A DNA stretch of 32,000 nt, from assembly GCF_936981045.1 (NCBI RefSeq), contig NZ_OW441264.1, positions 300,001 to 332,000 of the forward strand, in the 5' to 3' direction. The position numbers and the translations under genes were made by a program. A model generated the notes under the pieces. That model worked only from the letters and a program-made list of their open reading frames with translations. It made no database searches and was not told the origin of the DNA. Of this stretch, positions 107 to 29,451 are shown piece by piece (the first letter of the stretch is position 1; each line of letters starts with the position of its first letter). This DNA comes from Candidatus Saccharimonadota bacterium. GTDB lineage: Bacteria; Bacteroidota; Bacteroidia; Cytophagales; Amoebophilaceae.

Positions 107-347
107 ACGTGAGTTCGGGATTTATTTGACTGATTTACAACAATTTAATATCAATTATTTAGTTAATATTTGCACCTATTTAACAAGTTTTTATATCTAA
201 TTTTATAAATATAATATATATAATAAACTGATTACCAGAATTATTTGTTATTCAACTACCTATTTAACTGTCTAATAAAACAAATTTTATAAATTTTCAT
301 TGATATTGATTATCAAATGAAAAAATAATCTAATCCCGAACTCACGT
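107..347 (+). repeat. MITE-like element, copy 1 (241 bp; '+' = arbitrary forward orientation)
   Basis: Starts ACGTGAGTTCGGGATTT and ends CTAATCCCGAACTCACGT, giving a perfect 16-nt terminal inverted repeat ACGTGAGTTCGGGATT. Flanked by direct TAATA (102-106) and TAATA (348-352). Removing the element plus one TAATA restores the IS256-A reading frame. The element is AT-rich with no ORF. Confidence 0.9.
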
Positions 348-5964: not shown

Positions 5965-8900
5965 CTAACCTTTTTTGCCCGGCTGCCCTTCCGTATAGGA
6001 CTTTAATGGCAATTGTACATAAAAAGGTGCATGGAACAAGAAAGAAATAATTTCTTGACTTATGGTAGCCGTGAATTTTCTAAACAAGTGATAGGCTTCA
6101 AACTTAAAGGTTATAATAGGGTCTTGCCTTTCATAGATGGCATTTTGAACCGATTGCTTTAAATCATCCATAACCCGTAAATGACTTTTCCAATGTTGAT
6201 CAATTACATGAAGGACAACCATGCATGCTAAATTTTTAACCAGCTCTCTTCCACCAGACGCCATAAAGAGTGTAGGGTACACAGTCGCTCTAATGTACAT
6301 TTTACCATCAAAAAAGGGAACTTCCACACGATCACTACTGCCTATAACAGACGCCTTAAAATAGGAAAATAACCTCTCCTGTAATGCTGTAGTGCGTTGG
6401 GAATATGTCTTTGCCAGTTGCTGATAGATAGCCTCTATAAGGACTTCTTTCTTTTTACCTGCAAAAAATGATTCTGAAAAGGTATCTCCAAATACAGCAG
6501 AAAAAATGGGATTTAGAAAACTTGCTTCTAGTTTACTATCTTCATGCTCTATAATGTTGGTCACCGTATCGTAGAGCATATTGATAATATCCACTTCAAC
6601 CCCTTTGCCTAATAAAGCACGGTTCCGCCTCTGATAAACTGCACCACGATGGGTACCCATTTCACGGTCATACTCTAACAAACGCTTGCGCATAGCAAAG
6701 TTATTCTGTTCTACCTTTTTTTGTGCCCTTTCGATAGACCTGCTGACCATACCATGTTGAATGACCTCTCCCTCTTCCAAACCAATTTTATCCATTATAG
6801 CCGCAATTCTATCAGAACCAAAGAGACGCATTAAACTATCCTCTAAGGAAAGAAAAAACTGAGAAGAACCTGGATCGCCTTGTCGCCCAGAACGGCCACG
6901 CAACTGCCTATCGACGCGTCTTGATTCATGACGTTCTGTACCAATAATGGCCAACCCACCAGCTGCTTTTGAGGCCTGGTCCAACTTAATATCCGTACCG
7001 CGACCCGCCATATTTGTGGCAATCGTAACGGTACCAGCTATACCAGCTTGTGCCACTATTTCCGCTTCTTTTTGATGGTGTTTTGCATTTAAAATCTGAT
7101 GGGGAATTTTACGAAAAGCAAGCATTTTGCTGACCAATTCAGATACTTCTACAGAAGTAGTACCCACTAAAACCGGTCTCCTTTTGGCAGATAAGGAGAC
7201 TATTTCTTTAATGATGGCATTAAATTTTTCCCGTACTGTCTTGTAAACCTTATCTTCTTTGTCCTCTCGCAACAATGGCCTATGGGTGGGAATAGGTACT
7301 ACCGCAAGGCCATAAATATCCCAAAATTCCTCCGCATCCGTCTCGGCTGTACCAGTCATACCGGCTAACTTATCATACATATGGAAGTAGCTTTGAAGGG
7401 TAATAGAGGCATAGGTCTGAGAAGGTTTTTCAATCTTAACACCCTCCTTGGCTTCTAAGGCTTGATGGAGGCCATCTGAATATCTACGGCCATCCAATAC
7501 CCGACCGGTTTGTTCATCTACAATTTTTACTTTACCCTTGGATACAATATAGGCCACATCTTTTTCAAATAAGGCATATGCTTTTAACAACTGATGCAAG
7601 GCATGAATACGTTGTGCTTTTACCTTATAAGTTTGCTGAAAATAAGAACGCTTAGCGAGGCTTTCTTCATGGGTCAAAGCAGTATCATTCTCAATAGCCG
7701 CAATATGAGCTGCTACGTCTGGCAATATAAAGAAAGAGGGATCTTTTTCTTGTTCGGTTAGATAGGTGAGCCCTTTTTCAGTGATCTCAACATTGTTATG
7801 CCTTTCATCAATGGAAAAGAAAAGGGAGGCATCTGCTTGAGGCATCATCTTAGCATTTTCCTGTATGTAATAAGATTCTACATTGTCTAGGATTTGACGC
7901 ATGCCTTTTTCACTAAGAAATTTAATTAAAGGCTTATACTTAGGCAATCCCCTATAGGCACGAAAAAGAGCTAGCCCTCCTTCCTCTATATTGCCTGCTT
8001 TTATTTTTTGCTTTGCTTCTTGTAGCAGCTTAATCACTAGTTCCTTTTGTAGTCTATAGAGCTGTGCAATTTTAGCAGCCAACTCTTTATAAATGTGCTC
8101 ATCACGCTCTTCTACGGGACCTGAAATAATAAGTGGTGTTCTAGCATCATCAATAAGGACAGAATCAACTTCATCTACAATAGCAAAATAGTGCGCACGC
8201 TGTACCAAATCACTGGCATCTGTTACCATATTATCCCTGAGGTAGTCAAAACCAAATTCATTATTGGTACCAAATATAATATCGGCTTGATAGGCACGTT
8301 GCCGCTCAAGGGAGTAAGCAGGATAGCGATCTATACAGTCTACTGTAAAACCATGGAATTCAAAAATAGGCGCCATCCATTCTGTGTCTCTCTTGGCCAA
8401 ATAGTCGTTTACGGTAACCACATGGACGCCTGCATTGCTTAATGCATTTAAAAAGGCAGCTAAGGTGGTAATCAGGGTCTTACCCTCCCCAGTAGCCATT
8501 TCAGCTATTTTCCCTTGATGTAAGACCATCCCTCCTATTAATTGCACATCGTAGTGAACCATTTCCCAAACAACCATACGCCCACTTACTTGCCATTGAT
8601 TCTGCCAAATGGCTTGATCGCCCTCTATGGTCACGTAAGACTTACGGGCAGCAATGGCTCGATCATGGTCATTGGCGGAAACGCTTAACTGACTATGATC
8701 TCTAAAACGGCGAGCGGTTTCTTTGACAATGGCAAAGACACGTGCCAATACCTGATCTAAAATGGATCCCAATGCTACTCTGTGGTGTTTTTTTAACTGC
8801 TCTAGCCGCTTGTAATGGTCTACCCTGGCGTGAACTGTAGCCAAAGCATCGGTTAGCTGTTCATCTGCTGATCTACTTAGCCGCTCAATTTCAGATGTAA

Positions 8901-9081
8901 TAAGTTGCAAGTGCGTGTCTATCTCTCCACGAACAGCCGTAACCTCTGCCCGTAATTGATCATGAGAAAGAAGCTGTAACGACTGATAAATTTGGTTGAT
9001 TTCAGGTATTTTTTGATTATAAAAACGGAGTTGTTGCTCTTTCTTTGAAGTAAAAATTTTAGAAAAAAGTTGATAAAGCAT
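5965..9081 (-). CDS. secA: Preprotein translocase ATPase SecA (1038 aa)
   Basis: MATGEGKTL (Walker A), DEVDSVLIDDARTPLIIS, GTERHESRRVDRQLRGRSGRQGDPG. The stop codon is TAG. Confidence 0.97.
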   Translation of the reverse strand: MLYQLFSKIFTSKKEQQLRFYNQKIPEINQIYQSLQLLSHDQLRAEVTAVRGEIDTHLQLITSEIERLSRSADEQLTDALATVHARVDHYKRLEQLKKHHRVALGSILDQVLARVFAIVKETARRFRDHSQLSVSANDHDRAIAARKSYVTIEGDQAIWQNQWQVSGRMVVWEMVHYDVQLIGGMVLHQGKIAEMATGEGKTLITTLAAFLNALSNAGVHVVTVNDYLAKRDTEWMAPIFEFHGFTVDCIDRYPAYSLERQRAYQADIIFGTNNEFGFDYLRDNMVTDASDLVQRAHYFAIVDEVDSVLIDDARTPLIISGPVEERDEHIYKELAAKIAQLYRLQKELVIKLLQEAKQKIKAGNIEEGGLALFRAYRGLPKYKPLIKFLSEKGMRQILDNVESYYIQENAKMMPQADASLFFSIDERHNNVEITEKGLTYLTEQEKDPSFFILPDVAAHIAAIENDTALTHEESLAKRSYFQQTYKVKAQRIHALHQLLKAYALFEKDVAYIVSKGKVKIVDEQTGRVLDGRRYSDGLHQALEAKEGVKIEKPSQTYASITLQSYFHMYDKLAGMTGTAETDAEEFWDIYGLAVVPIPTHRPLLREDKEDKVYKTVREKFNAIIKEIVSLSAKRRPVLVGTTSVEVSELVSKMLAFRKIPHQILNAKHHQKEAEIVAQAGIAGTVTIATNMAGRGTDIKLDQASKAAGGLAIIGTERHESRRVDRQLRGRSGRQGDPGSSQFFLSLEDSLMRLFGSDRIAAIMDKIGLEEGEVIQHGMVSRSIERAQKKVEQNNFAMRKRLLEYDREMGTHRGAVYQRRNRALLGKGVEVDIINMLYDTVTNIIEHEDSKLEASFLNPIFSAVFGDTFSESFFAGKKKEVLIEAIYQQLAKTYSQRTTALQERLFSYFKASVIGSSDRVEVPFFDGKMYIRATVYPTLFMASGGRELVKNLACMVVLHVIDQHWKSHLRVMDDLKQSVQNAIYERQDPIITFKFEAYHLFRKFTATISQEIISFLFHAPFYVQLPLKSYTEGQPGKKG

Positions 9082-9204: not shown

Positions 9205-9326
9205 AACATAATCAAGGGACAAGAAATTTACTGATTTTATCATGCTTATACAAATTAATTTAACATAAAAATGAGTTCTTTTGGACCTGTTTTCAGAAAC
9301 AAGCTGATGATGGCTTGCTTCATAAG

Positions 9327-10068
9327 TATACTGGACTGAAAAAATCGGACAAAAATATTTTAATTTATTTTCCGTATCGTTTAGTTTTAGAGTCATACAA
9401 TAAATTAATCAGATGGGTAGAAATAAGATTAGGCATTTTAGTTCGGAAGAAAAAACTAAGATAGTATTCGCTTTACTAAAAGAAGATTTAACGCTAGTTG
9501 AGCTGTCTTCCAAATATGGCGTCACTAGTAAAACCCTTCAAAATTGGAAGCGTCAATTTTTAGAGAATGCCTCTATAGCCTTTGATCCATCCAAGGTTGT
9601 TAGTGTGTATAAAGAGGAAATTAGCACACTTAAGCATCAAAACGATGCACTTGCGAAGGCTTTAGGAAAGGCTACCGTTGAGCGAGATTGGGCAGTGGGC
9701 AAGCTAAAGAGCTTGGATTTACCAAATAAGCAAAGTCTTGTCACATGCAAGCTTCCCAATTTATCCAAGGCAAGACAATGTGCATTATTATCGATACATC
9801 GCTCTTTGATATATTACAAAGCTAGGGAATTAAGTGGTTGTAATACATCTGTTTTAAACAAAATAGATTCAATCTACAGGGAACATCCGGAATATGGTTA
9901 TCGCTATATATACAATCAGCTACAAGAGGATGGCTTTAATGTAGGCAGAGATCGTGTGCTTAAGTATATGGGTGTACTGAATATATCGGCTGTTTATCCA
10001 CGTAAGAAGCCCTCTATTTCTTGTAGAAATGCTCAGCATAAGGTCGTATGTTTATAGAGGAAAAAAAT
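9327..10068 (+). mobile_element. IS3-family IS 'type D', copy D1 (left end plus 5' part, truncated)
   Basis: Begins TATACTGGACTGAAAAAATCGGAC, the same terminus seen at 13022, 28146, 27118 (rc) and 17148 (rc). It stops abruptly where the IS256-B left terminus begins (10069). The IS3 sequence does not resume after that element. Confidence 0.85.
9413..10057 (+). pseudogene. IS3-family transposase (HTH/leucine-zipper OrfA region fused in frame to start of integrase region), truncated
   Basis: MGRNKIRHFSSEEKTKIVFALLKEDLTLVELSSKYGVTSKTLQNWKRQF... is the HTH_Tnp_1-like part. It is followed by LSKARQCALLSIHRSLIYYK...YGYRYIYNQLQEDGFNVGRDRVLKYM, the start of an IS3 OrfB. The DDE core is missing. Confidence 0.8.
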
Positions 10069-11057: not shown

Positions 11058-11297
11058 ACGTGAGTTCGGGATTAGATTATTTTTTCATTTGATAATCAAT
11101 ATTAATAAAAATTTATAAAATTTGTTTTATAGACAGTTAAATAGGTAGTTTAATAACAAATAATTCTGGTAATCAGTTTATTATATATATTATATTTATA
11201 AAATTAGATATAAAAACTTGTTAAATAGGTGCAAATATTAACTAAATAATTGATATTAAATTGTTGTAAGTCAGTCAAATAAATCCCGAACTCACGT
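11058..11297 (-). repeat. MITE-like element, copy 3 (reverse orientation)
   Basis: Full-length, with tips ACGTGAGTTCGGGATTAG and AATCCCGAACTCACGT. The flanking pentamers TACTA and TATTC differ. They correspond to two IS256-B positions that lie 240 bp apart in copy B1. Confidence 0.9.
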
Positions 11298-11505: not shown

Positions 11506-13005
11506 ATGCACAATGCGGTTAAAAAACTTGGTAAAGAAACCATTATATATGGTATAAGCAACATTATCGTACGCGGATGTGCGTATTTGGCTTTACTACT
11601 TCAAACCAATGTACTGACGCCCAGTGCATATAGCATTATTATAGAATTCTATGGAAGTTATATTGCTTTGGGCCACGTCATCTATGATTTGGCCATGGAT
11701 ATGACCTATTTTAGGTATGTACATACATTAGGCAAACAATATACCTTCAATATAATTGTAACTATATTACTGGTTACCAGTATTATTTTTTCAACCTTAC
11801 TCATCATATATACCCCACAAATCGCAAAAATAACCAACCACTTAGCCCATATACGTTATTTCTATTATATGGCTGGTATTCTTATGCTAGATACCCTATT
11901 GATGATGCCCTATGCGAACCTACGTGTAGAAAAAAAGACCTTTTGGTTTCTGGCGGTGAAATTTTTACAAGCTTTTGCGAATCTTACTTTTTCTTTTATT
12001 TTACTTTATTGCCCTCTATATTTAAGATATATAGAATATTTAATGTATAGTGGTTTAAATGTAACCCTATATTTAAATGGGTTAGATGCTGTTTTTATAG
12101 CCAATTTATTGTCTAACCTAACCGCTTTAGCCTTTCTACTACCAAATTTTAAGGGATTTTATTTAATCTGGAATAGCCGTACAACTCGGGCAATAGGCGG
12201 TTATGCAGCCACTTCTTTTTTTACAACGTTGTTTTTTAGGATGAATGAGACACTACCTCTTTTATTATTTCGACAATTGGTTCCTAATAATTTTTATAGC
12301 ACCCATACAAAGGAGGAAATGTTAGGCAACTTTGGCACCTCCTATAAGCTAACTCTATGTATAACATTAGGGATTCAAGCCTTTAAACATGCTGCAGAAC
12401 CATTTTTTTTTGCCAACTCAGGTCGCAAGGAGGCGCTAAAGCTATATAGCCAAACGATGCATCTATTTATACTAGCATCCTGCTTCTGCCTATTGCTTTT
12501 TAGTTTAAATATAAATTGGGTGGCAAAAATCCTGATTCCGAATGCAGGTTATCGTCACACCATTGACACCGTATCCTACTTAGCATTTGCACATATTCTT
12601 TTAGGTGTCTATTACAACTTTAGTGCGGCCTTTAAACTGAGCGATCATCCACGATATAATACTTGGATCAGTGCATTGGGCAGCCTAGTGATTGGGTTTA
12701 CAGCACTTCTATTGATACCGAGATGGGCCCATTGGGGCTGCGTATACGCCTCTATCAGTGGTGTAACTGCTATGGGGCTACTGGGGTATTATATGGGTCA
12801 AAAATGTTATCCAATACCTTATCATGCACATGGTTTTTTACTTCTTTTGCTTACCTTTTTAGTATTGGGGAAAGTTTCCTTATGGCCAGCCCAACTCGCT
12901 TTTTTAGGCACAGGGTGGGCCTATATATTCCTTCATATAACGATTTTGGCCACCTTTTATATCATATCCATTGGATGGAAAAAGTTTATTAACCTTACAA
13001 AATAA
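11506..13005 (+). CDS. Polysaccharide/oligosaccharide flippase family protein (Wzx/MOP-like), 499 aa
   Basis: A multi-pass hydrophobic protein. Its N-terminus KKLGKETIIYGISNIIVRGCAYLALLLQTNVLTPSAYS...MDMTYFRY resembles Bacteroidota 'polysaccharide biosynthesis protein' flippases. The family call is from pattern memory only. Confidence 0.65.
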   Translation: MHNAVKKLGKETIIYGISNIIVRGCAYLALLLQTNVLTPSAYSIIIEFYGSYIALGHVIYDLAMDMTYFRYVHTLGKQYTFNIIVTILLVTSIIFSTLLIIYTPQIAKITNHLAHIRYFYYMAGILMLDTLLMMPYANLRVEKKTFWFLAVKFLQAFANLTFSFILLYCPLYLRYIEYLMYSGLNVTLYLNGLDAVFIANLLSNLTALAFLLPNFKGFYLIWNSRTTRAIGGYAATSFFTTLFFRMNETLPLLLFRQLVPNNFYSTHTKEEMLGNFGTSYKLTLCITLGIQAFKHAAEPFFFANSGRKEALKLYSQTMHLFILASCFCLLLFSLNINWVAKILIPNAGYRHTIDTVSYLAFAHILLGVYYNFSAAFKLSDHPRYNTWISALGSLVIGFTALLLIPRWAHWGCVYASISGVTAMGLLGYYMGQKCYPIPYHAHGFLLLLLTFLVLGKVSLWPAQLAFLGTGWAYIFLHITILATFYIISIGWKKFINLTK

Positions 13006-13021: not shown

Positions 13022-13156
13022 TATACTGGACTGAAAAAATCGGACAAAAATATTTTAATTTATTTTCCGTATCGTTTAGTTTTAGAGTCATACAATAAAT
13101 TAATCAGATGGGTAGAAATAAGATTAGGCATTTTAGTTCGGAATAAAAAATTAAGA
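13022..13156 (+). mobile_element. IS3 'type D' left-end fragment (D2, 135 bp)
   Basis: Near-identical to 9327-9461, covering the terminus through the first codons MGRNKIRHFSS. It is cut off by MITE-4. Confidence 0.85.
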
Positions 13157-13393
13157 ACGTGAGTTCGGGATTTATTTGACTGATTTACAACAATTTAATA
13201 TCAATTATTTAGTTAATATTTGCACCTATTTAACAAGTTTTTATATCTAATTTTATAAATATAATATATATAATAAACTGATTATAAGAATTATTTGTTA
13301 TTCAACTACCTATTTAACTGTCTATAAAACAAATTTTATAAATTTTTATTAATATTAATTATCAAATGAAAAAATAATCTAATCCCGAACTCA
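13157..13393 (+). repeat. MITE-like element, copy 4 (forward; right tip lacks last 3 nt)
   Basis: Starts ACGTGAGTTCGGGATTT and ends ..CTAATCCCGAACTCA, followed by unrelated sequence. The left flank is IS3 and the right flank is the IS5-like remnant, so this is a chimeric junction. Confidence 0.85.
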
Positions 13394-13450
13394 TTTTATT
13401 ATTTATTGGTTTTCAGGTTTATTTCAGTTCATTTTTGATAGACCATTCCC

Positions 13451-13636: not shown

Positions 13637-14467
13637 GTGTGCAACAAATGGGGTGTAAGTCCCCTGACTCTAATTTGTCTATTTCGGGAGTCTAGCAGGA
13701 GGTTGGATTTGTGGGGTGATTCACAGGTTTAAGTTACCTTTAAATGCATCTGCAAAATAGCGAGCTGCAACAAAAGTGAACCCAAATTAGCCTCGTTAAG
13801 CCGTTTAAGCGCATTTGCCGACTGTCTAGTGGCTACAGGAAGGCTGATAGTAGGATGGAAAAAAATAGACCATGACCATCATACAAGTGCCGGGGTGTTA
13901 GGGGTTGCACGCTATGAATGTTTCACATCGTAGTCCGGGAAATCTGATATGAATCCAGTAGGCTACTGGAAACTTTATTGTGTAAGTAAAGCGAAATCAA
14001 TAAACGTGAGTTCGGGATTAGATTATTTTTTCATTTGATAATCAATATCAATGAAAATTTATAAAATTTTTTTTATAGACAGTTAAATAGGTAGTTGAAT
14101 AACAAATAATTCTTATAATCAGTTTATTATATATATTATATTTATAAAATTAGATATAAAAACTTGTTAAATAGGTGCAAATATTAACTAAATAATTGAT
14201 ATTAAATTGTTGTAAATCAGTCAAATAAATCCCGAACTCACGTAATAAGGGTGATATCAGAAGTCCGCGGGGTCCATAATACCGTTCGTATTGATTGGGA
14301 AACCACTCAAGAGGAAAGGGACCCTACTTCAGTTAACGAGTTTAAAAGAGTTGAGAATGTCTGATTGCCCTAAAGCTATGAACGGAACATTAAAAGTTCG
14401 GCAACTCCAAAGAACTCTATATCTTAAATCCAAGCAATGTAAGGAAGTCAGATTTTATAGTCTATAT
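13637..14467 (+). mobile_element. Group II intron, 5' fragment G1 (ribozyme domains plus first 37 codons of the RT/maturase), interrupted by MITE-5 and truncated by IS982 copy C2
   Basis: Begins GTGTG (GUGYG consensus) at 13637. About 580 nt of non-coding, comparatively GC-rich sequence follow. Then the ATG at 14357 opens MSDCPKAMNGTLKVRQLQRTLYLKSKQCKEVRFYSLY, matching the typical N-terminus of bacterial group II intron reverse transcriptases (..LQ..LY.K.K.....RFY.LYDK). Domains V/VI and the rest of the ORF are absent. Confidence 0.75.
14004..14243 (-). repeat. MITE-like element, copy 5 (reverse orientation), intact insertion
   Basis: Perfect tips, flanked by direct AATAA (13999-14003) and AATAA (14244-14248). 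It lies inside the group II intron fragment. Confidence 0.92.
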
Positions 14468-14574
14468 ACCTGAGTTCGGGATTAGCTTGTTAAAAAATAG
14501 CTTTAATAAAGTTCCTTTGTTTTTTAAATTTGGAGATAAAAAAATACTAACCAGATTATCCAAAGGAGCCAGTT

Positions 14575-14823
14575 ATGAATGTAGAAAAATTAGTTGAAAT
14601 ATATTATGCTGTTGATGAATTTCTCATAAAGTTTATGCCGTATATGGAAAAACAACTGTTAACCAATTCTAAAAGAAAACCCACTAGAACTTGTTCATTA
14701 ACTTTGAGTGAAATAATGACTATTCTTATTGCCTTTCATGTGATTGGTTTTAGAAATTTTAAGTCTTATTATATTCATTTACAGAAATTTCATTCTGGTG
14801 AATTTGGAAAGTTAGTAAGCTAG
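14575..14823 (+). pseudogene. IS982-family transposase, N-terminal part (copy C2)
   Basis: Differs from 1752..2000 at only 5 of 82 residues by my manual comparison. It ends at the same TAG. Confidence 0.8.
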
Positions 14824-14884
14824 AATAGATTTATAGAACTGATCCAAAGAACGTTAGTTCCCTTGTACTGTTTTACACAAAGTC

Positions 14885-15454
14885 TTGCTAAAAAAAACAG
14901 GTTGTTATTTTATGGATGCAACAGCCATCAAGGTTTTCCATATCAAAAGAGCCTATACGCACAGGGTTTTTAAATCGATTGCTACTAAAGGTAAAACCAG
15001 CATCGGTTGGTTTTTTAGATTAAATTTGCACTTGATAGTCAATGATTTAGGAGAAATTATGAATTTTCAACTGACCACAGGTAAAACTAATGATAGGCTT
15101 CCTGTAGAAAATTTGTATAAACACTTGATGGGTAAAATGTTTGCCGATAAAGGTTACATAAGCAAAGATTTATTTGAAAAACTGATCGAGAAAGGCGTGG
15201 AACTCATTACCCAGATCAGAAAAAATATGAAAAATGCTTTTACGCCACTCTGGGATAAACTGATGCTTAGAAAACGATCTATAATTGAAACTATTATAGA
15301 TCAGCTCAAAAATATTAGCCAGATAGAACATTCCAGGCATAGAAGCATACCTAATTTTCTAGTCAATTTGATAGCTGGAATTACAGCTTATGCACTAAAA
15401 GAGAAAAAACCTTCTATAACTAATATATATATGACTGGTTCACAATACGTCTAA
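14885..15454 (+). pseudogene. IS982-family transposase, C-terminal part (copy C2, frame-shifted relative to N-part)
   Basis: Same protein as 2028..2633 with several substitutions. It is in a different frame from 14575..14823. Confidence 0.8.
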
Positions 15455-15458
15455 TCCC

Positions 15459-16396
15459 GGAGTCTTTTGTTTTAAGTGTATAAATATTTTTTAGGATTTA
15501 TCTTTACCTAAATCATAACACTTAAAACAATGAAAAGAAAAGAGACAGTTAAAGATAGGATAAGCAAGGCCATAGATGTACTGATAGAATCAGGTGTAGA
15601 CCTTTCCAGACTTTTTGATCAAGACGGCTTACTCAAACAATTAAGTAAGCGTCTTGTAGAAAAAGCATTATATGCTAAAGGTATGAGTCTGTCAGATATT
15701 CAGATTCAAATACAGGAATTATATGGCGCAGAAGTAAGTGAAAGCCTGATAAGTAACATCACAGACTCTGTTATTGAAGATGTTAAGATATGGCAAAATC
15801 GTCCCTTAGAATCAGTCTATTCTATTGTTTTTTTTGATTGCTTTGTAGTTAAAGTTAGACAAGATAAGCGCATCATCAACAAGGCAGTCTATGTTGCTTT
15901 AGGTATAGATAGATCTAGCATAAAGGATGTTTTAGGGCTTTGGATGAGTGAAAATGAAGGGGCTAAATTTTGGTTAGGCAATTTAACAGAACTCAAAAAT
16001 CGGGGTATGAACGATATGCTCATTGCATGTACAGATAATTTGTCAGGCATGTCTGAGGCCATTGCTGCTGTATACCTAAAAACGGAACATCAGCTCTGTA
16101 TTGTTCATGCAATTAGGGGTAGTTTGCAGTATGTTTCTTATAAACATAGAAAGGTATTAGTTGCTGATTTAAAACCAATTTATACAGCAGTTACCGAGCA
16201 AAAAGCATTGATGGCCTTAGAAGCTTTTGCTACTAAGTGGAATCAACAATATCCACAAATAGCCTAATCTTGGTATGCTAACTGGGATAATCTGATGGTA
16301 TTTTTACAGTACCCTAATGCCATGCGTAAGGTCATTTACACAACAAATGTTTGGAATCTGTAAATAGCCAATTTCGTAGAGTTACCAAAAATAAAA
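15459..16396 (+). mobile_element. IS256-family IS 'type B', copy B3 (internal deletion, 3'-truncated by MITE-6)
   Basis: The left terminus matches 10069 onward. About 210 bp are missing relative to B2 (B2 has EKALQSEMDY...KILSLYAKGMSL, here EKALYAKGMSL). There is a TAA at 16265-16267. It shares the 1-nt frameshift at ~16346-16358 with B1. It ends at ..ACCAAAAATAAAA next to the MITE. Confidence 0.85.
15530..16267 (+). pseudogene. IS256-B transposase (copy B3, deleted and prematurely stopped)
   Basis: Track ORF of 245 aa, collinear with B2 apart from the internal deletion. Confidence 0.85.
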
Positions 16397-16637
16397 AAGT
16401 GAGTTCGGGATTTATTTGACTGATTTACAACAATTTAATATCAATTATTTAGTTAATATTTGCACCTATTTAACAAGTTTTTATATCTAATTTTATAAAT
16501 ATAATATATATAATAAACTGATTACCAGAATTATTTGTTATTCAACTACCTATTTAACTGTCTAATAAAACAAATTTTATAAATTTTCATTGATATTGAT
16601 TATCAAATGAAAAAATAATCTAATCCCGAACTCAGGT
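16397..16637 (+). repeat. MITE-like element, copy 6 (forward), chimeric junction
   Basis: The left tip variant is AAGTGAGTTCGGGATTT. The right tip is CTAATCCCGAACTCAGGT, so the last 7 nt match the IS982-type tip (rc ACCTGAG) rather than the usual CTCACGT. The left flank is IS256-B3 (TAAAA) and the right flank is IS3 (ATTGA). Confidence 0.88.
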
Positions 16638-17148
16638 ATTGATTATAATTGTAATGGAAAGATTTTTTAGAACCCTAAAATATAATTGCATATTTATCAA
16701 TGATTTTAAAAATATTAAAGTGTTAAAAGAGGGAATTAATAGGTACATTACCAAGTATAATTATAAAAGATTCTATTCTAGCATTAACTATCAAAAACCT
16801 ATGAACGTGAGTTCGGGATTAGATTATTTTTTCATTTGATAATCAATATCAATGAAAATTTATAAAATTTGTTTTATTAGACAGTTAAATAGGTAGTTGA
16901 ATAACAAATAATTCTGGTAATCAGTTTATTATATATATTATATTTATAAAATTAGATATAAAAACTTGTTAAATAGGTGCAAATATTAACTAAATAATTG
17001 ATATTAAATTGTTGTAAATCAGTCAAATAAATCCCGAACTCACGTTATGAGTGTTTATCTTAGGTATTTAAAAAATGGGGGCTAGAAAATGGGAAAAAGT
17101 AGGAAACAAAATTAAGGAAAATTTGTCCGAAGAAATCAGTCCAGTATA
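16638..17148 (+). mobile_element. IS3 'type D' 3' fragment (D3: end of integrase ORF plus right terminus), interrupted by MITE-7
   Basis: 16639-16803 encodes ..MERFFRTLKYNCIFINDFKNIKVLKEGINRYITKYNYKRFYSSINYQKPM, the IS3 OrfB C-terminus (compare 27181..27453). After the MITE it continues to ..GAAGAAATCAGTCCAGTATA, the inverted copy of the left terminus. Confidence 0.85.
16805..17045 (-). repeat. MITE-like element, copy 7 (reverse orientation), intact insertion
   Basis: Perfect tips, flanked by direct TATGA (16800-16804) and TATGA (17046-17050). The uninterrupted paralogous site exists in IS3 copy D4 (~27210-27230, minus strand). Confidence 0.92.
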
Positions 17149-17150
17149 CA

Positions 17151-17432
17151 ATTCATAGCGTGCAACCCCTAACACCCCGGAACTTGTAAGATGGTTATGG
17201 TCTATTTTTTCCATCCTACTATCAGTCTTCCTGTAGCGACTAGACAGTCGGCAAATGCGCTTAAAAGGTTTAACGAGGCTAATTTGGGTTCACTTTTGTT
17301 GCAGCCCGCTATTTTGCAGATGCATTTAAAAGTAACTTGAACCTGTAAGTCGCTTCACAAATCCAACCTCCTTCTAGACTCCTGAAATAGACAAATTAGA
17401 GTCTGGGGACTTACACCCCATTTGTTTCACAC
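17151..17432 (-). mobile_element. Group II intron, 5' fragment G2 (first ~283 nt only)
   Basis: The reverse complement begins GTGTGAAACAAATGGGGTGTAAGTCCCC and is collinear with 13637-13919. I counted 11 substitutions in the first ~110 nt by manual alignment. It is truncated where the IS3 D3 terminus begins. Confidence 0.8.
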
Positions 17433-19020: not shown

Positions 19021-20145
19021 CTATAGGGTATACTTATATCTCCAATGTGCTGCCTTACCATGCTCCGCTATATAATCCATGCGTTCTGTACGTATTTGTA
19101 CTTCTAATTGTCCATATTTATAGGTTTCAAAGGTAAGATGAAGCGATTCGTAGCTACTGTCTCTTGGTGTACTGACCCAGTCCCTCATAATATTGCACAT
19201 TGGCTTATAAAGATTACTAATGATACTAAGCATTCTCCAACAAGCTACTTTTTCCTCTTGTAACGTTTTACCATCCATATTGGTTAGAATGATTCTGATG
19301 GCAGTAAGGTCATGTACTTGGTCAAAGCTAATCTTTAATTTTTTAATTTTATGCCAAATAGAATAAACAGATTTAATCCGTTTTTTTATGATAAAATGAA
19401 TGCCACGTGTTTGCAGAGCGGCTTGAACTTCCTCAGCAATAAGATTTAGCTTTTGTTGCCTTTTCATTTTAGTCATCCCAAGTTTGGCAGTGATGGCATA
19501 GTAACTAAGTGTATCTGTATGCTTTAGCCAAAAATCTGCTAATTTGGTTTGAATATCATACATCCGCATTCTATGCGAGAGTGGGATATAAAAATATTTT
19601 AGATCAAGCAATAGTTGAGCACTAGAATGGACCAATTCTGAATCTAGATTTTCCAAAGCTACACCGCTACAATGTACACGAATGATGTCACACATTTGTA
19701 GCAAAATGGCTACAATATGGTGGCAATTTATATCAGGATGATGCGGATAATTACGAATGGTATCATTACGCAATCTATAGCGCTTTAGTGCTTCCAGTTC
19801 CTTCAATATGGAGGTTGCTTTTGCGCCAAATCGCTTTTCAACAGCTTCTTCTTTAATCAATCCTGCTAAAAAAGCTGGTGTTAAGATCGCGGCTATAGCA
19901 GTAGGCAGATCTAAAGACATCTCCGTAGTAGCAATGATCGCTACTTGTAGTGACTCTTTTACCGAAGGCTTGAATGTAGCTTTGTCTACTTGCTCTCCAA
20001 AGTGCTCTGCCCATTGATATGCTTCCTGGATAATGGAACAGGATTGTTTTATGTCATTTGCATGCTGGCTTACCGCTCTTGCAAGTTGATGCAGATTCCA
20101 AGCGTTGACATCAGGGACTGTATGCTTTTTCATCATTCTGTACAA
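19021..20145 (-). CDS. RelA/SpoT-homologue, N-terminal half only (degenerate HD domain plus (p)ppGpp synthetase domain), 374 aa
   Basis: Synthetase blocks are KRIKSVYSIWHKIKK, HDLTAIRIIL, SSYESLHLTF, LEVQIRTERMDYIAEHGKAAHWRYK. The ORF ends 6 codons later at a TAG. The region equivalent to the HD hydrolase site reads ..KPSVKESLQVA...AILTPAFLAG.. and lacks the H and HD residues. No TGS or ACT region follows. Confidence 0.8.
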   Translation of the reverse strand: MYRMMKKHTVPDVNAWNLHQLARAVSQHANDIKQSCSIIQEAYQWAEHFGEQVDKATFKPSVKESLQVAIIATTEMSLDLPTAIAAILTPAFLAGLIKEEAVEKRFGAKATSILKELEALKRYRLRNDTIRNYPHHPDINCHHIVAILLQMCDIIRVHCSGVALENLDSELVHSSAQLLLDLKYFYIPLSHRMRMYDIQTKLADFWLKHTDTLSYYAITAKLGMTKMKRQQKLNLIAEEVQAALQTRGIHFIIKKRIKSVYSIWHKIKKLKISFDQVHDLTAIRIILTNMDGKTLQEEKVACWRMLSIISNLYKPMCNIMRDWVSTPRDSSYESLHLTFETYKYGQLEVQIRTERMDYIAEHGKAAHWRYKYTL

Positions 20146-20437
20146 TCAAAAAAAAATTACATTGGCCAGTTCCACAAGCTTATGCGTTTAGGTGATCGGC
20201 TTACCCCTAAGGTAAGCTCTCTATTTTAAAGTTACAAACTAATCATGCGAACAGCAAAAATAATCTTATAACCTAAGTTCGGGATTAGCTTGTTAAAAAA
20301 TAGCTTTAAAAAGCTTCTTTGTGTTTTAAATTTGGAGATAAAAAAATACTAACCAGATTATCCAAAGGAGCCAGTTATGAATGTAGAAATAATTAGTTGA
20401 AATATATTATGCTGTTGATGAATTTCTCATAAAGTTT

Positions 20438-20626
20438 ATGCCGTATATGGAAAAACAACTGTTAACCAACTCTAAAAGAAAACCCACTAGAACTTGTTCA
20501 TTAACTTTGAGTGAAATAATGACTGTTCTTATTGCCTTTCATGTGATTGGTTTTAGAAATTTTAAGTCTTATTATATTCATTTACAGCAATTTCATTCTA
20601 GTAAATTTGGAAAATTAGTAAGCTAG
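20438..20626 (+). pseudogene. IS982-family transposase, N-terminal part (copy C3, 5' frameshift)
   Basis: Identical in sequence to residues 21-82 of 1752..2000. It ends at the same TAG. Confidence 0.8.
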
Positions 20627-20665
20627 AATAGATTTGTAGAACTGATCCAAAGAACGTTAGTTCCC

Positions 20666-21259
20666 TTGTACTGTTTTACACAAAGTCTTTCTAAAACAAA
20701 AACAGGTTGTTATTTTATGGATGCAACAGCCATCAAGGTTTGCCATATCAAAAGAGCCTATACGCACAGGGTTTTTAAATCGATTGCTACTAAAGGTAAA
20801 ACCAGCACCGGTTGGTTTTTTGGATTAAAGTTGCACTTGATAGTCAATGATTTAGGAGAAATTATGAATTTTCAACTGACCACAGGTAAAACTAATGATA
20901 GGCTTCCTGTAGAAAATTTGTGTAAACACTTGATGGGTAAAATGTTTGCCAATAAAGGTTACATAAGCAAAGATTTATTTAAAAAACTGATCGAGAAAGG
21001 CGTGGAACTCATTACCCAGATCAGAAAAAATATGAAAAATGCTTTTATGCCACTCTGGGATAAACTGATGCTTAGAAAACGATCTATAATTGAAACTATT
21101 ATAGATCAGCTCAAAAATATTAGCCAGATAGAACATTCCAGGCATAGAAGCATACCTAATTTTCTAGTCAATTTGATAGCTGGAATTACAGCTTATGCAC
21201 TAAAAGAGAAAAAACCTTCTATAACTAATATATATATGACTGGTTCACAATACGTATAA
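20666..21259 (+). pseudogene. IS982-family transposase, C-terminal part (copy C3)
   Basis: Same frame as 20438..20626. It is near-identical to 28795..29388. Confidence 0.8.
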
Positions 21260-21562
21260 TCCCGAACTGAGGTGCTTACTAATAATGGCAACCCACCCAA
21301 ACCCACATGCATGTTTCATTAACATTACTTTTCATAAAAAAACTAAATGGCCGAAAAAACGGCTTGTTTTAAATTTCTTTGTGGCATACAAATTCTATTT
21401 ATTAGACAACGTGATAAAAACCTATTTCTGTTGTAGTGCATCTTATACATTTAATAATTATTTATTTCAATAACCATTTGGCTTACCTGTACTGGTTTAT
21501 TTGTATTTTCAAAGGGTCTCATTATCTTTATAAATAGTTTAAAAATCTACAATTTTTAATGC

Positions 21563-27099: not shown

Positions 27100-27180
27100 A
27101 AAAATCGGACAAAAAAGTATACTGGACTGATTTATTCGGACATTTTTTTCTTAATTTTATTTTCTATTTTTTCCCATTTG

Positions 27181-27453
27181 CTAGTCCAGCAATTTTACAT
27201 GGTTAAGATAGACGTTCATAGATTTTTGATAATTAATACTAGAATAAAACCTTTGGTAATTGTATTTAGTAATGTACCTGTTAATTCCCTCTTTTAACAC
27301 TTTAATATTTTTAAAATCATTGATAAATATGGAATTATATTTTAGGGTTGTAAAAAATATTTCCATTACAATATTATCAATGCTTCTACCTCTGCCATTC
27401 ATAGAGATTTGAATATTATGCCTTTTTAATAAGTCTGTATGCTTAACAACCAC
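27181..27453 (-). pseudogene. IS3-family integrase C-terminal remnant (copy D4)
   Basis: ..NGRGRSIDNIVMEIFFTTLKYNSIFINDFKNIKVLKEGINRYITKYNYQRFYSSINYQKSMNVY.. is paralogous to 16639-16803. Confidence 0.8.
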
Positions 27454-27902: not shown

Positions 27903-28142
27903 ACGTGAGTTCGGGATTAGATTATTTTTTCATTTGATAATCAATATTAATAAAAATTTATAAAATTTGTTTTATAGACAGTTAAATAGGTAGTTGAATA
28001 ACAAATAATTCTGATAATCAGTTTATTACATATATTATATTTATAAAATTAGATATAAAAACTTGTTAAATAGGTGCAAATATTAACTAAATAATTGATA
28101 TTAAATTGTTGTAAATCAGTCAAATAAATCCAGAACTCACGT
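27903..28142 (-). repeat. MITE-like element, copy 8 (reverse orientation)
   Basis: Full length. The left flank is TAAAA (27898-27902) and the right flank is GATTA. Its private variants (..AAATCCAGAACTCACGT tip, CTGATAATC, ATTACATAT) are shared only with copy 9. Confidence 0.9.
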
Positions 28143-28208
28143 GATTATACTGGACTGAAAAAATCTGACAAAAATATTTTAATTTATTTTCCGTATCGTT
28201 TAGTTTTA
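28143..28208 (+). mobile_element. 66-bp segment containing the IS3 'type D' left terminus, inverted relative to the adjacent IS3 copy D4
   Basis: GATTA + TATACTGGACTGAAAAAATCTGACAAAAATATTTTAATTTATTTTCCGTATCGTTTAG + TTTTA matches 9327-9389 in plus orientation, whereas D4 is in minus orientation. Confidence 0.85.
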
Positions 28209-28506
28209 ACGTGAGTTCTGGATTTATTTGACTGATTTACAACAATTTAATATCAATTATTTAGTTAATATTTGCACCTATTTAACAAGTTTTTATATCT
28301 AATTTTATAAATATAATATATGTAATAAACTGATTATCAGAATTATTTGTTATTCAACTACCTATTTAACTGTCTATAAAACAAATTTTATAAATTTTTA
28401 ACCTGAGTTCGGGATTAGCTTGTTAAAAAATAGCTTTAAAAAGCTTCTTTGTGTTTTAAATTTGGAGATAAAAAAATACTAACCAGATTATCCAAAGGAG
28501 CCAGTT

Positions 28507-28755
28507 ATGAATGTAGAAAAGTTAGTTGAAATATATTATGCTGTTAATGAATTTCTCATAAAGTTTATGCCGTATATGGAAAAACAACTGTTAACCAACT
28601 CTAAAAGAAAACCCACTAGAACTTGTTCATTAACTTTGAGTGAAATAATGACTGTTCTTATTGCCTTTCATGTGATTGGTTTTAGAAATTTTAAGTTTTA
28701 TTATGTTCATTCACAGAAATTTCATTCTAGTGAATTTGGAAAGTTAGTAAGCTAG
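28507..28755 (+). CDS. IS982-family transposase, N-terminal part (copy C4)
   Basis: 82 aa. It ends at the shared TAG and is in frame with 28795..29388. Confidence 0.8.
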   Translation: MNVEKLVEIYYAVNEFLIKFMPYMEKQLLTNSKRKPTRTCSLTLSEIMTVLIAFHVIGFRNFKFYYVHSQKFHSSEFGKLVS

Positions 28756-28794
28756 AATAGATTTGTAGAACTGATCCAAAGAACGTTAGCTCCC

Positions 28795-29388
28795 TTGTAC
28801 TGTTTTACACAAAGTCTTTCTAAAACAAAAACAGGTTGTTATTTTATGGATGCAACAGCCATCAAGGTTTGCCATATCAAAAGAGCCTATACGCACAGGG
28901 TTTTTAAATCGATTGCTACTAAAGGTAAAACCAGCACCGGTTGGTTTTTTGGATTAAAGTTACACTTGATAGTCAATGATTTAGGAGAAATTATGAATTT
29001 TCAACTGACCACAGGTAAAACTAATGATAGGCTTCCTGTAGAAAATTTGTGTAAACACTTGATGGGTAAAATGTTTGCCGATAAAGGTTACATAAGCAAA
29101 GATTTATTTAAAAAACTGATCGAGAAAGGCGTGGAACTCATTACCCAGATCAGAAAAAATATGAAAAATGCTTTTATGCCACTCTGGGATAAACTGATGC
29201 TTAGAAAACGATCTATAATTGAAACTATTATAGATCAGCTCAAAAATATTAGCCAGATAGAACATTCCAGGCATAGAAGCATACTTAATTTTCTAGTCAA
29301 TTTGATAGCTGGAATTACAGCTTATGCACTAAAAGAGAAAAAACCTTCTATAACTAATATATATATGACTGGTTCACAATACGTCTAA
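28795..29388 (+). CDS. IS982-family transposase, C-terminal part (copy C4)
   Basis: 197 aa carrying the DDE blocks described for 2028..2633. Confidence 0.85.
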   Translation: MYCFTQSLSKTKTGCYFMDATAIKVCHIKRAYTHRVFKSIATKGKTSTGWFFGLKLHLIVNDLGEIMNFQLTTGKTNDRLPVENLCKHLMGKMFADKGYISKDLFKKLIEKGVELITQIRKNMKNAFMPLWDKLMLRKRSIIETIIDQLKNISQIEHSRHRSILNFLVNLIAGITAYALKEKKPSITNIYMTGSQYV

Positions 29389-29451
29389 TCCCGAACTTAG
29401 GTTGATATTGATTATCAAACGAAAAAATAATCTAATCCCGAACTCATGTTA

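Follow-up and report, generated by a model that had tools for sequence, protein, structure and literature searches.

Nine MITE copies matching MITECca01, with ends like those of ISCca4, in 32 kb of repeat-dense symbiont DNA

The stretch of DNA analysed here (the window) is 32 kb long, and host genes make up 48% of it. These comprise rpmB, ftsY, secA, the gene for a 499-aa membrane protein, mltG, a relA/spoT-like gene and rsmH, followed in the inventory by genes for ZIP, ligA, a class-V aminotransferase, rnhA, a Big_5 protein and two tRNAs. The SecA protein (5965-9081) has 1038 aa, and its SecA_DEAD match extends over residues 7-587 for a profile of 290 positions, which points to a large insertion over and above the preprotein-binding domain normally found there. 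The 499-aa ORF (11506-13005), whose predicted product is a membrane protein of the multi-pass type, finds nothing in Pfam at E≤0.001 and lies between IS256/MITE debris and an IS3 copy. The relA/spoT-like gene has 76% DNA identity to a flank in Cardinium cBtQ1. An IS of the IS982 lineage adjoins the 5' end of this gene both in the window (19021-21273) and in cBtQ1 (locus L046, 1119-3600), in opposite relative orientations; this arrangement could reflect a common hot spot, or an ancient insertion that was followed by an inversion.

Scattered through the window are nine copies of a MITE, referred to here as c1 to c9. A search for the 16-mer terminal inverted repeat (TIR) of the element, ACGTGAGTTCGGGATT, allowing up to two mismatches, returns 25 matches in the 32 kb and none in 100 shuffles. 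Eighteen of them are the ends of the nine MITE copies, six are the ends of three complete ISs and one belongs to a truncated IS, these four ISs being copies of ISCca4. The MITE copies lie at 107-347 (c1, +), 2742-2981 (c2, -), 11058-11297 (c3, -), 13157-13396 (c4, +), 14004-14243 (c5, -), 16397-16637 (c6, +), 16805-17045 (c7, -) and 27903-28142 (c8, -). The ninth, c9 (+), is split by a 1002-bp ISCca4 copy (28401-29402) into a left part of 192 bp (28209-28400) and a right part of 47 bp (29403-29449). The original prediction, made from the letters of the window, had described nine collinear copies of about 240 bp in both orientations, and this is borne out at base level; its coordinates hold as well, apart from the end of c4, which had been placed at 13393, whereas the degenerate right TIR of this copy (CTCATTT) reaches 13396.

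Once oriented, the copies are 240-241 bp long, collinear throughout and 95.8-100% identical in pairwise comparison. The pair with 100% identity, c1 and c7, occupies two different sites, each with its own target site duplication (TSD), which indicates that the MITE has been active recently. The repeat ACGTGAGTTCGGGATT stands on both ends of the element, in agreement with the common 16-nt TIR noted before, and it is perfect in c1, c3, c5 and c7. The right terminus of c6 (16622-16637) reads ACCTGAG instead of ACGTGAG, with the C at position 3 that is typical of ISCca4, and is the product of either a point mutation or a conversion from an IS end. The earlier description of the copies as very AT-rich and free of ORFs is upheld: the MITE is about 80% A+T, and no ORF of 80 aa or more is found inside any intact copy. 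When the nine copies are masked, a BLAST search of the window detects no further MITE fragments, the only matches being of 14-15 nt and all to IS termini.

All nine copies sit in mobile or remnant DNA, so that the prediction of an element always embedded in mobile DNA and never in a housekeeping gene could be confirmed copy by copy. The first, c1, lies within a transposase gene of the IS256 family, since its reconstructed empty site matches Transposase_mut positions 214-271 at E=5e-17. The second, c2, has ISCca4 on one side and an IS6 copy on the other; c3 has IS256-B on both sides; c4 adjoins IS3 on its left and, on its right, the remnant of an IS5/IS1182-like transposase (DDE_Tnp_1_6, E=4e-9), whose DNA is 82% identical to repeats of Cardinium cBtQ1. 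The site of c5 is within a group II intron, between a D1-D4 segment at 13647-13775, which narrowly misses the gathering score of 49 (47.2 bits, E=2.6e-8), and an ORF at 14291-14473, which has no Pfam match and which we take to resemble the N-terminus of an intron-encoded reverse transcriptase. Of the remaining copies, c6 stands at an IS256-B/IS3 junction, c7 and c8 are each within an IS3 copy, and c9 is at an IS3/IS6 junction. The absence of all nine from host genes (0/9; P ~0.003 under uniform insertion) is the pattern expected from purifying selection.

The group II intron DNA of the window comprises two D1-D4 segments, at 13647-13775 (+) and 17294-17422 (-), with scores of 47.2 and 40.2 bits respectively against the threshold of 49. 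A related pair of repeats (13804-13919 and 17151-17265) is found near them. The first of these introns has been interrupted by c5 and then cut by ISCca4 at 14468.

On sequence grounds, the nine repeats are copies of an element that is already catalogued as MITECca01, and the finding is correct but not new. MITECca01 was described in 2022 by Halter, Hendrickx, Horn and Manzano-Marin (Microbiol Spectr; PMC9769881) in Cardinium cOegib (ENA OW441264), the symbiont of a dwarf spider. The sequence in Fig. S1 of that paper was machine-read, with 234 of 240 letters recovered, and can be aligned with each window copy over its whole length at 92-94%; the residual 6-8% consists mostly of single-base dropouts in homopolymer runs, as fits the machine reading of a PDF, and nothing substantive differs. 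According to the same paper, MITECca01 is about 240 bp long with inverted repeats very like the ends of ISCca4 (IS982 family), and no mobile element of cOegib is more abundant: its 169 copies account for 3.5% of the chromosome and are mostly intergenic or disrupt other mobile elements (PMC9769881). The published element and the window copies are alike in their 240 bp, their collinearity, the perfect 16-nt TIR ACGTGA(G)TTCGGGATT and the lack of an ORF, and also in high copy number and nesting; in both cases ISCca4, IS6, two IS256 types, IS3 and group II introns are found alongside. Identical 16-nt repeats that resemble those of ISCca4 (ACCTRAGTTCGGGATTAGC) but are shorter, the mark of MITECca01, are present in the window copies. 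The IS repertoire of the window likewise fits the IS table of cOegib, whose mobile elements are IS6, IS982, two IS256 types, IS3/IS150, IS5 and group II introns (PMC9769881).

MITECca01 was not detected in other Cardinium genomes (PMC9769881). The MITE end pattern finds no match in 185,579 representative genomes (cOegib not being among them), and its three matches in JGI metagenomes are all chance matches of 20-23 nt on unrelated contigs (GC 59%, 60% and 37%), which agrees with the lineage-specific distribution claimed in PMC9769881. That paper is silent on direct repeats or TSDs, a target motif, recombination and inversions of MITECca01, and the later papers that cite the element add nothing on mechanism. 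As for the original prediction, its picture of a nested, MITE-like element with 5-bp AT-rich duplications stands on every tested point; what it missed was the catalogue name and the link to ISCca4.

The proposed parent, ISCca4, is represented in the window by four copies, all on the + strand: IS_a (1646-2647, 1002 bp), IS_b (20271-21273, 1003 bp), IS_c (28401-29402, 1002 bp, the copy inside c9) and IS_d (14468-15470, the end being approximate), which has lost its right terminus. The ORFs of these copies match Pfam DDE_Tnp_1_3 (PF13612) at E=1e-69, which we take to be the transposase domain of the IS982 family. That family, as listed in ISfinder, is presumably defined by a length of about 1 kb, a transposase of DDE_Tnp_1_3 type and termini starting with AC; the IS of the window has this domain, a length of 1002-1003 bp and the ends ACCT…AGGT. 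Its three complete copies are 95.5-96.3% identical to the published ISCca4 sequence as machine-read from PMC9769881, where ISCca4 is assigned to the IS982 family and is reported from cOegib in 68 copies, 7 of them intact.

The transposase gene carries the same in-frame TAG (…GKLVS*NRF…; 1998-2000 in IS_a) in all four copies, together with a 1-nt insertion and hence a frameshift in IS_b and a 2-nt deletion in IS_d, so the source of the transposase has to lie in another part of the genome. At the TAG site the published ISCca4 reference appears to carry a sense codon, the machine-read text being ambiguous there. It seems that a nonsense-mutant ISCca4 lineage has spread or been homogenised and acts as a second, 1-kb non-autonomous element. 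The nearest relatives of the transposase (76-86% aa identity) are all from Cardinium, namely cBtQ1, the Tipula unca symbiont and cBcalN2, and the next-best matches, at about 55%, are in unrelated MAGs. Together with the relA/spoT-like gene and the IS repertoire, these relatives point indirectly to Cardinium as the probable source of the window. The comparison with the IS982 transposases of cBtQ1 and the Tipula unca symbiont gives only 76-86% over the C-terminal 200 aa, and the 'ISCca4' of cOegib may therefore count as a separate IS under the thresholds normally applied in naming. In cBtQ1 itself two IS982 sub-lineages coexist, with the termini ACGTCAGTTTTGGATTAGAA and ACCTGAACTCTGGATTAGAT.

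None of the three complete ISCca4 copies of the window has a matching TSD. At the copy in c9 (28392-28409 and 29395-29412) one T is absent and there is no duplication: the junction reads …TTTTTA, the IS and TGATATTG, compared with an uninterrupted …TTTTTATTGATATTG. The point of insertion is in the 5' arm of the subterminal hairpin of the MITE. Reverse-complementing the right flank of IS_a, TATAAGAT (2648-2655), gives the left flank of IS_b, ATCTTATA (20263-20270). These two copies lie 18 kb apart in the same orientation; the target may have been palindromic, an old rearrangement may be involved, or the match may be due to chance.

The MITE copies themselves do show duplications of their targets. 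Three of them are bounded in situ by the perfect 5-bp TSDs that had been predicted, TAATA (c1), AATAA (c5) and TATGA (c7). Identical 5-mers 240 bp apart occur at a fraction of 0.0022 (0.22%) of window positions, which gives P ~9e-7 for at least three such cases among nine. Two further TSDs are recovered from the 66-bp segment between c8 and c9 (28143-28208), an inverted terminal piece of IS3. An intact IS3 copy matches this spacer at 9324-9389 in forward orientation and the left flank of c8 at 9385-9584 in reverse, and the two matches overlap by 5 bp, TTTTA. When the spacer is re-inverted, TAAAA stands on both sides of c8 and TAATC on both sides of c9, just as the original prediction had it for the undoing of a local inversion. 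Perfect 5-bp TSDs are accordingly seen in 5/9 copies, of which three have them as they stand and two once the 66-bp inversion is reversed.

Empty sites inside the window, also foreseen, exist for c7 and c8 in IS3 and for c6 in IS256-B. The IS3 paralogue of the c7 site (27117-27381, in the rve_3 domain) is uninterrupted and has a single TATGA, the IS3 copies at 9385-9389 and 13080-13084 are without the c8 insertion, and the IS256-B copy at 758-1545 is without those of c3 and c6. The 5-mers that flank the other MITE ends without a partner are TAGTA, TGCTA, TACTA, TATTC, TAAGA, TATTA, TAAAA and ATTGA, most of them TAnnA-like. When TSDs and these orphans are taken together, 9 of the 13 flank 5-mers fit TAnnA/TnnTA, against a background of 5.3%. 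The element thus combines TIRs with a TSD of fixed length, as a MITE is defined, with the 5-bp TSD present in five of nine copies and an empty-site paralogue holding a single 5-mer.

Exchanged flanks (REARRANGEMENTS) are found in 6/9 copies, that is, in one inversion pair (c8/c9) and in four hybrids: c2 (TAGTA / TGCTA), c3 (TACTA / TATTC), c4 and c6 (TAAAA / ATTGA). The MITE has, on this evidence, taken part in rearrangements. The four hybrids had been singled out before as junctions of unrelated sequences with non-matching flanks, and so they are, although c3 has IS256-B on both sides: its flanks break off at what would be positions 1100 and 861 in the reference copy, and 234-239 bp of IS256-B are absent between them.

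How these flanks came about can be approached from the patterns that they form. Intramolecular transposition driven by a transposase, as opposed to homologous recombination of independent insertions, predicts the c8/c9 pattern X[MITE]rc(Y)...rc(X)[MITE]Y exactly, and it predicts the one-sided deletion at c3, with its missing IS256-B DNA and a TAnnA-like 5-mer on each flank. The two copies of the inversion pair are moreover each other's closest relatives (98.3% identical), and the 134 bp beside the spacer are identical in both. The same flank patterns are, however, also predicted if two independent copies, inverted or direct, undergo homologous recombination, and the differences between c8 and c9, which fall at 3-4 sites in the right 50 bp and at none in the left 190 bp, suggest a mosaic and not a simple replica. 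Intramolecular transposition is a tentative explanation of the hybrid flanks and the inversion, and one that we hold to be less likely than not. We know of no established mode of transposition for enzymes of the IS982 family.

The case for ISCca4 as the source of mobility starts from the ends of the two elements. The termini of ISCca4, ACCTRAGTTCGGGATTAG…CTAATCCCGAACTNAGGT, differ from the MITE ends at one or two positions only, and the MITE ends match the ISCca4 ends of the window at 14-15/16 nt and at up to 18/20 nt. At TIR position 3, all MITE ends but one have G (ACGTG), whereas all ISCca4 ends of the window have C (ACCTN). The elements differ further in that ISCca4 has 1002-1003 bp and a DDE_Tnp_1_3 gene, and their interiors are not detectably homologous. 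Local alignment of the MITE interior with ISCca4 scores 18, compared with 16.0 ± 1.8 for shuffles, of which 53/300 score at least as high. A BLAST search of the element against the masked window and 78 loci from Cardinium and elsewhere returns matches of 13-15 nt and two imperfect ones of 17-22 nt, none of them significant. With similarity confined to the outer 18-24 nt, the alternative that the repeat is a piece of a longer ORF-bearing element fails; for the same reason descent from ISCca4 by internal deletion is not demonstrable, and it is the ends alone that point to it.

The second line of evidence is the target. The TSDs of the IS982 lineage were surveyed in 47 left/right TIR pairs bounding 996-1037 bp, of which 45 are in Cardinium loci, with two loci scored twice, and two are in unrelated MAGs. 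A perfect duplication of at least 5 bp is present in 26 of the 47 pairs, and 22 of the 25 Cardinium TSDs show the TAnnA/TnnTA pattern, with the consensus T-A-W-T-A. The termini, the length of the TSD and the target pattern are therefore common to the MITE and the parental IS lineage, and the equal TSD length and target pattern support trans mobilisation, being what one kind of enzyme inserting both elements would be expected to leave. For the autonomous partner, matching ends are present in the window itself, and the 5-bp, TAnTA-type TSD is seen for the IS lineage elsewhere in Cardinium, not at the ISCca4 copies of the window. Trans mobilisation of MITECca01 by intact ISCca4 copies had already been proposed in PMC9769881.

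It is very probable that the nine repeats are MITECca01, a MITE with ISCca4-like ends that was most likely moved in trans by the ISCca4 transposase and was later rearranged. From the shared ends and targets we infer the ISCca4 transposase as the mobilising enzyme, as we also infer the mechanism behind the rearrangements. The MITE is gene-less, and its 16-nt TIRs are near-copies of the ISCca4 ends; the DDE transposase of an intact ISCca4 elsewhere in the genome would bind these ends and move the MITE in trans. Insertion would take place at AT-rich, TAnnA-like sites, where repair of the staggered cut would leave the 5-bp duplication, and the insertions that survive would be mainly those in dispensable DNA such as other ISs, a group II intron and intergenic remnants. 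The copies would later rearrange by homologous recombination or by intramolecular transposition, with local inversions and deletions as the outcome.

A bolder account, which we consider unlikely as a whole, combines two claims: that MITECca01 is an unrelated AT-rich sequence with acquired IS982-type ends, and that inversions and deletions are driven to a large extent by the MITE copies and not by the ISs. Its first part draws on the interior without homology and on the ACGT signature of a sister lineage that is said to be absent, and its second part on the exchanged flanks of six of the nine copies. The sister lineage in question is found in cBtQ1 and the Tipula symbiont, where the IS termini read ACGT; as an ISCca1-type lineage it is reported to be absent from cOegib (PMC9769881). 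With both ACGT and ACCT ends represented in the IS982 lineage, both variants are evidently in use within it.

More improbable still is an origin of the MITE, or its mobilisation, through another ACGT-ended element of the IS982 lineage (the cBtQ1 and Tipula unca type) in place of ISCca4, which would make the MITE a relic of a lost IS or an element that is inefficiently cross-mobilised. The MITE termini do start with ACGTG, the ACGT-ended lineage makes the same 5-bp TSD, and the right IS end of cBtQ1, ACGTGAGTTTCGGATTAGAC, agrees with the right MITE end at 14/16 and 17/20 nt, which is about as good as most ISCca4 ends (14-15/16, 17-18/20). The central block of the TIR, GTTCGGGATT, is nevertheless that of the ISCca4 of the window, and the cBtQ1 and Tipula types differ there (GTTTTGGATT / GTTTCGGATT). 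The best single match to a MITE end is, moreover, the left end of ISCca4, ACCTGAGTTCGGGATTAGCT, at 15/16 and 18/20. The lack of ISCca1-type copies in cOegib (PMC9769881) also tells against such a source, as do the identical MITE copies at different sites, whose recent activity needs a resident enzyme.

A sequence with a chance inverted repeat could in principle have multiplied by segmental duplication or gene conversion in repeat-dense DNA with evident recombination, in which 6/9 copies have no matching flanks in situ, but this is ruled out for practical purposes by boundaries that are base-exact at the TIR in 9/9 copies with flanks unrelated between copies, by the three TSDs in situ (P ~9e-7) with two more after a single inversion, and by empty sites with a single 5-mer.

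A structural or regulatory role of the MITE was likewise considered and rejected. The folding z-scores of -4.7 (DNA) and -4.8 (RNA) are due to the pairing of the TIRs and one small subterminal hairpin; the element has no Rfam match, and the Bacteroidota-type -7 motif TAnnTTTG occurs on neither strand.

A second published element, MITECca02, 174 bp long, is called 'very similar to MITECca01' in PMC9769881. The two have the same family of termini. As we read Fig. S1 of that paper, the right ~69 bp of MITECca02 correspond to the right end of MITECca01 (…AACAAATTTTATAAATTT…AATAATCT), and its left 105 bp are the left end of ISCca4. To judge by the printed sequence, MITECca02 has the appearance of a chimera, with its initial 105 bp from the start of ISCca4 and its other ~69 bp from one end of MITECca01. 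The MITECca01-derived ~69 bp are the end that is drawn on the left in Fig. S1 of PMC9769881, reverse-complemented. No MITECca02 is present in the window, where each left end of ACCT type continues into a full or truncated IS.

MITEs derived from ISs are known from other bacteria, examples being the Correia elements of Neisseria and RUP of Streptococcus. The window MITE resembles bacterial elements of this kind in general (Siguier et al. 2014) in its length below 300 bp, in TIRs that come from a resident IS, in a TSD of the length made by the parental IS, in its lack of coding capacity and in its high copy number. It differs from them in that its host is a maternally inherited intracellular symbiont, and in that its insertions are overwhelmingly in mobile elements and not gene-adjacent, with no regulatory role found.

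MITECca01 was already published in 2022, under this name and with a copy number and a likely parent (PMC9769881). What the window adds to that account is incremental: a 5-bp TAnnA duplication in common with the IS982 lineage, the frequent exchange of flanks, the spread of a nonsense-mutant ISCca4, and an interior with no detectable homology. A 5-bp TSD at TAnnA-like targets, as in the IS982 lineage, is the signature expected of mobilisation in trans. The exchange of flanks, seen in the 66-bp inversion, the internal deletion of an IS256 and the junctions of IS256 with IS3 and of IS3 with IS5, indicates that the MITE helps to rearrange and erode the mobilome of a reduced symbiont genome. If the bolder account of acquired ends and of MITE copies as drivers of rearrangement were true, MITECca01 would provide a useful model of how MITEs originate and of faster genome erosion in heritable endosymbionts.
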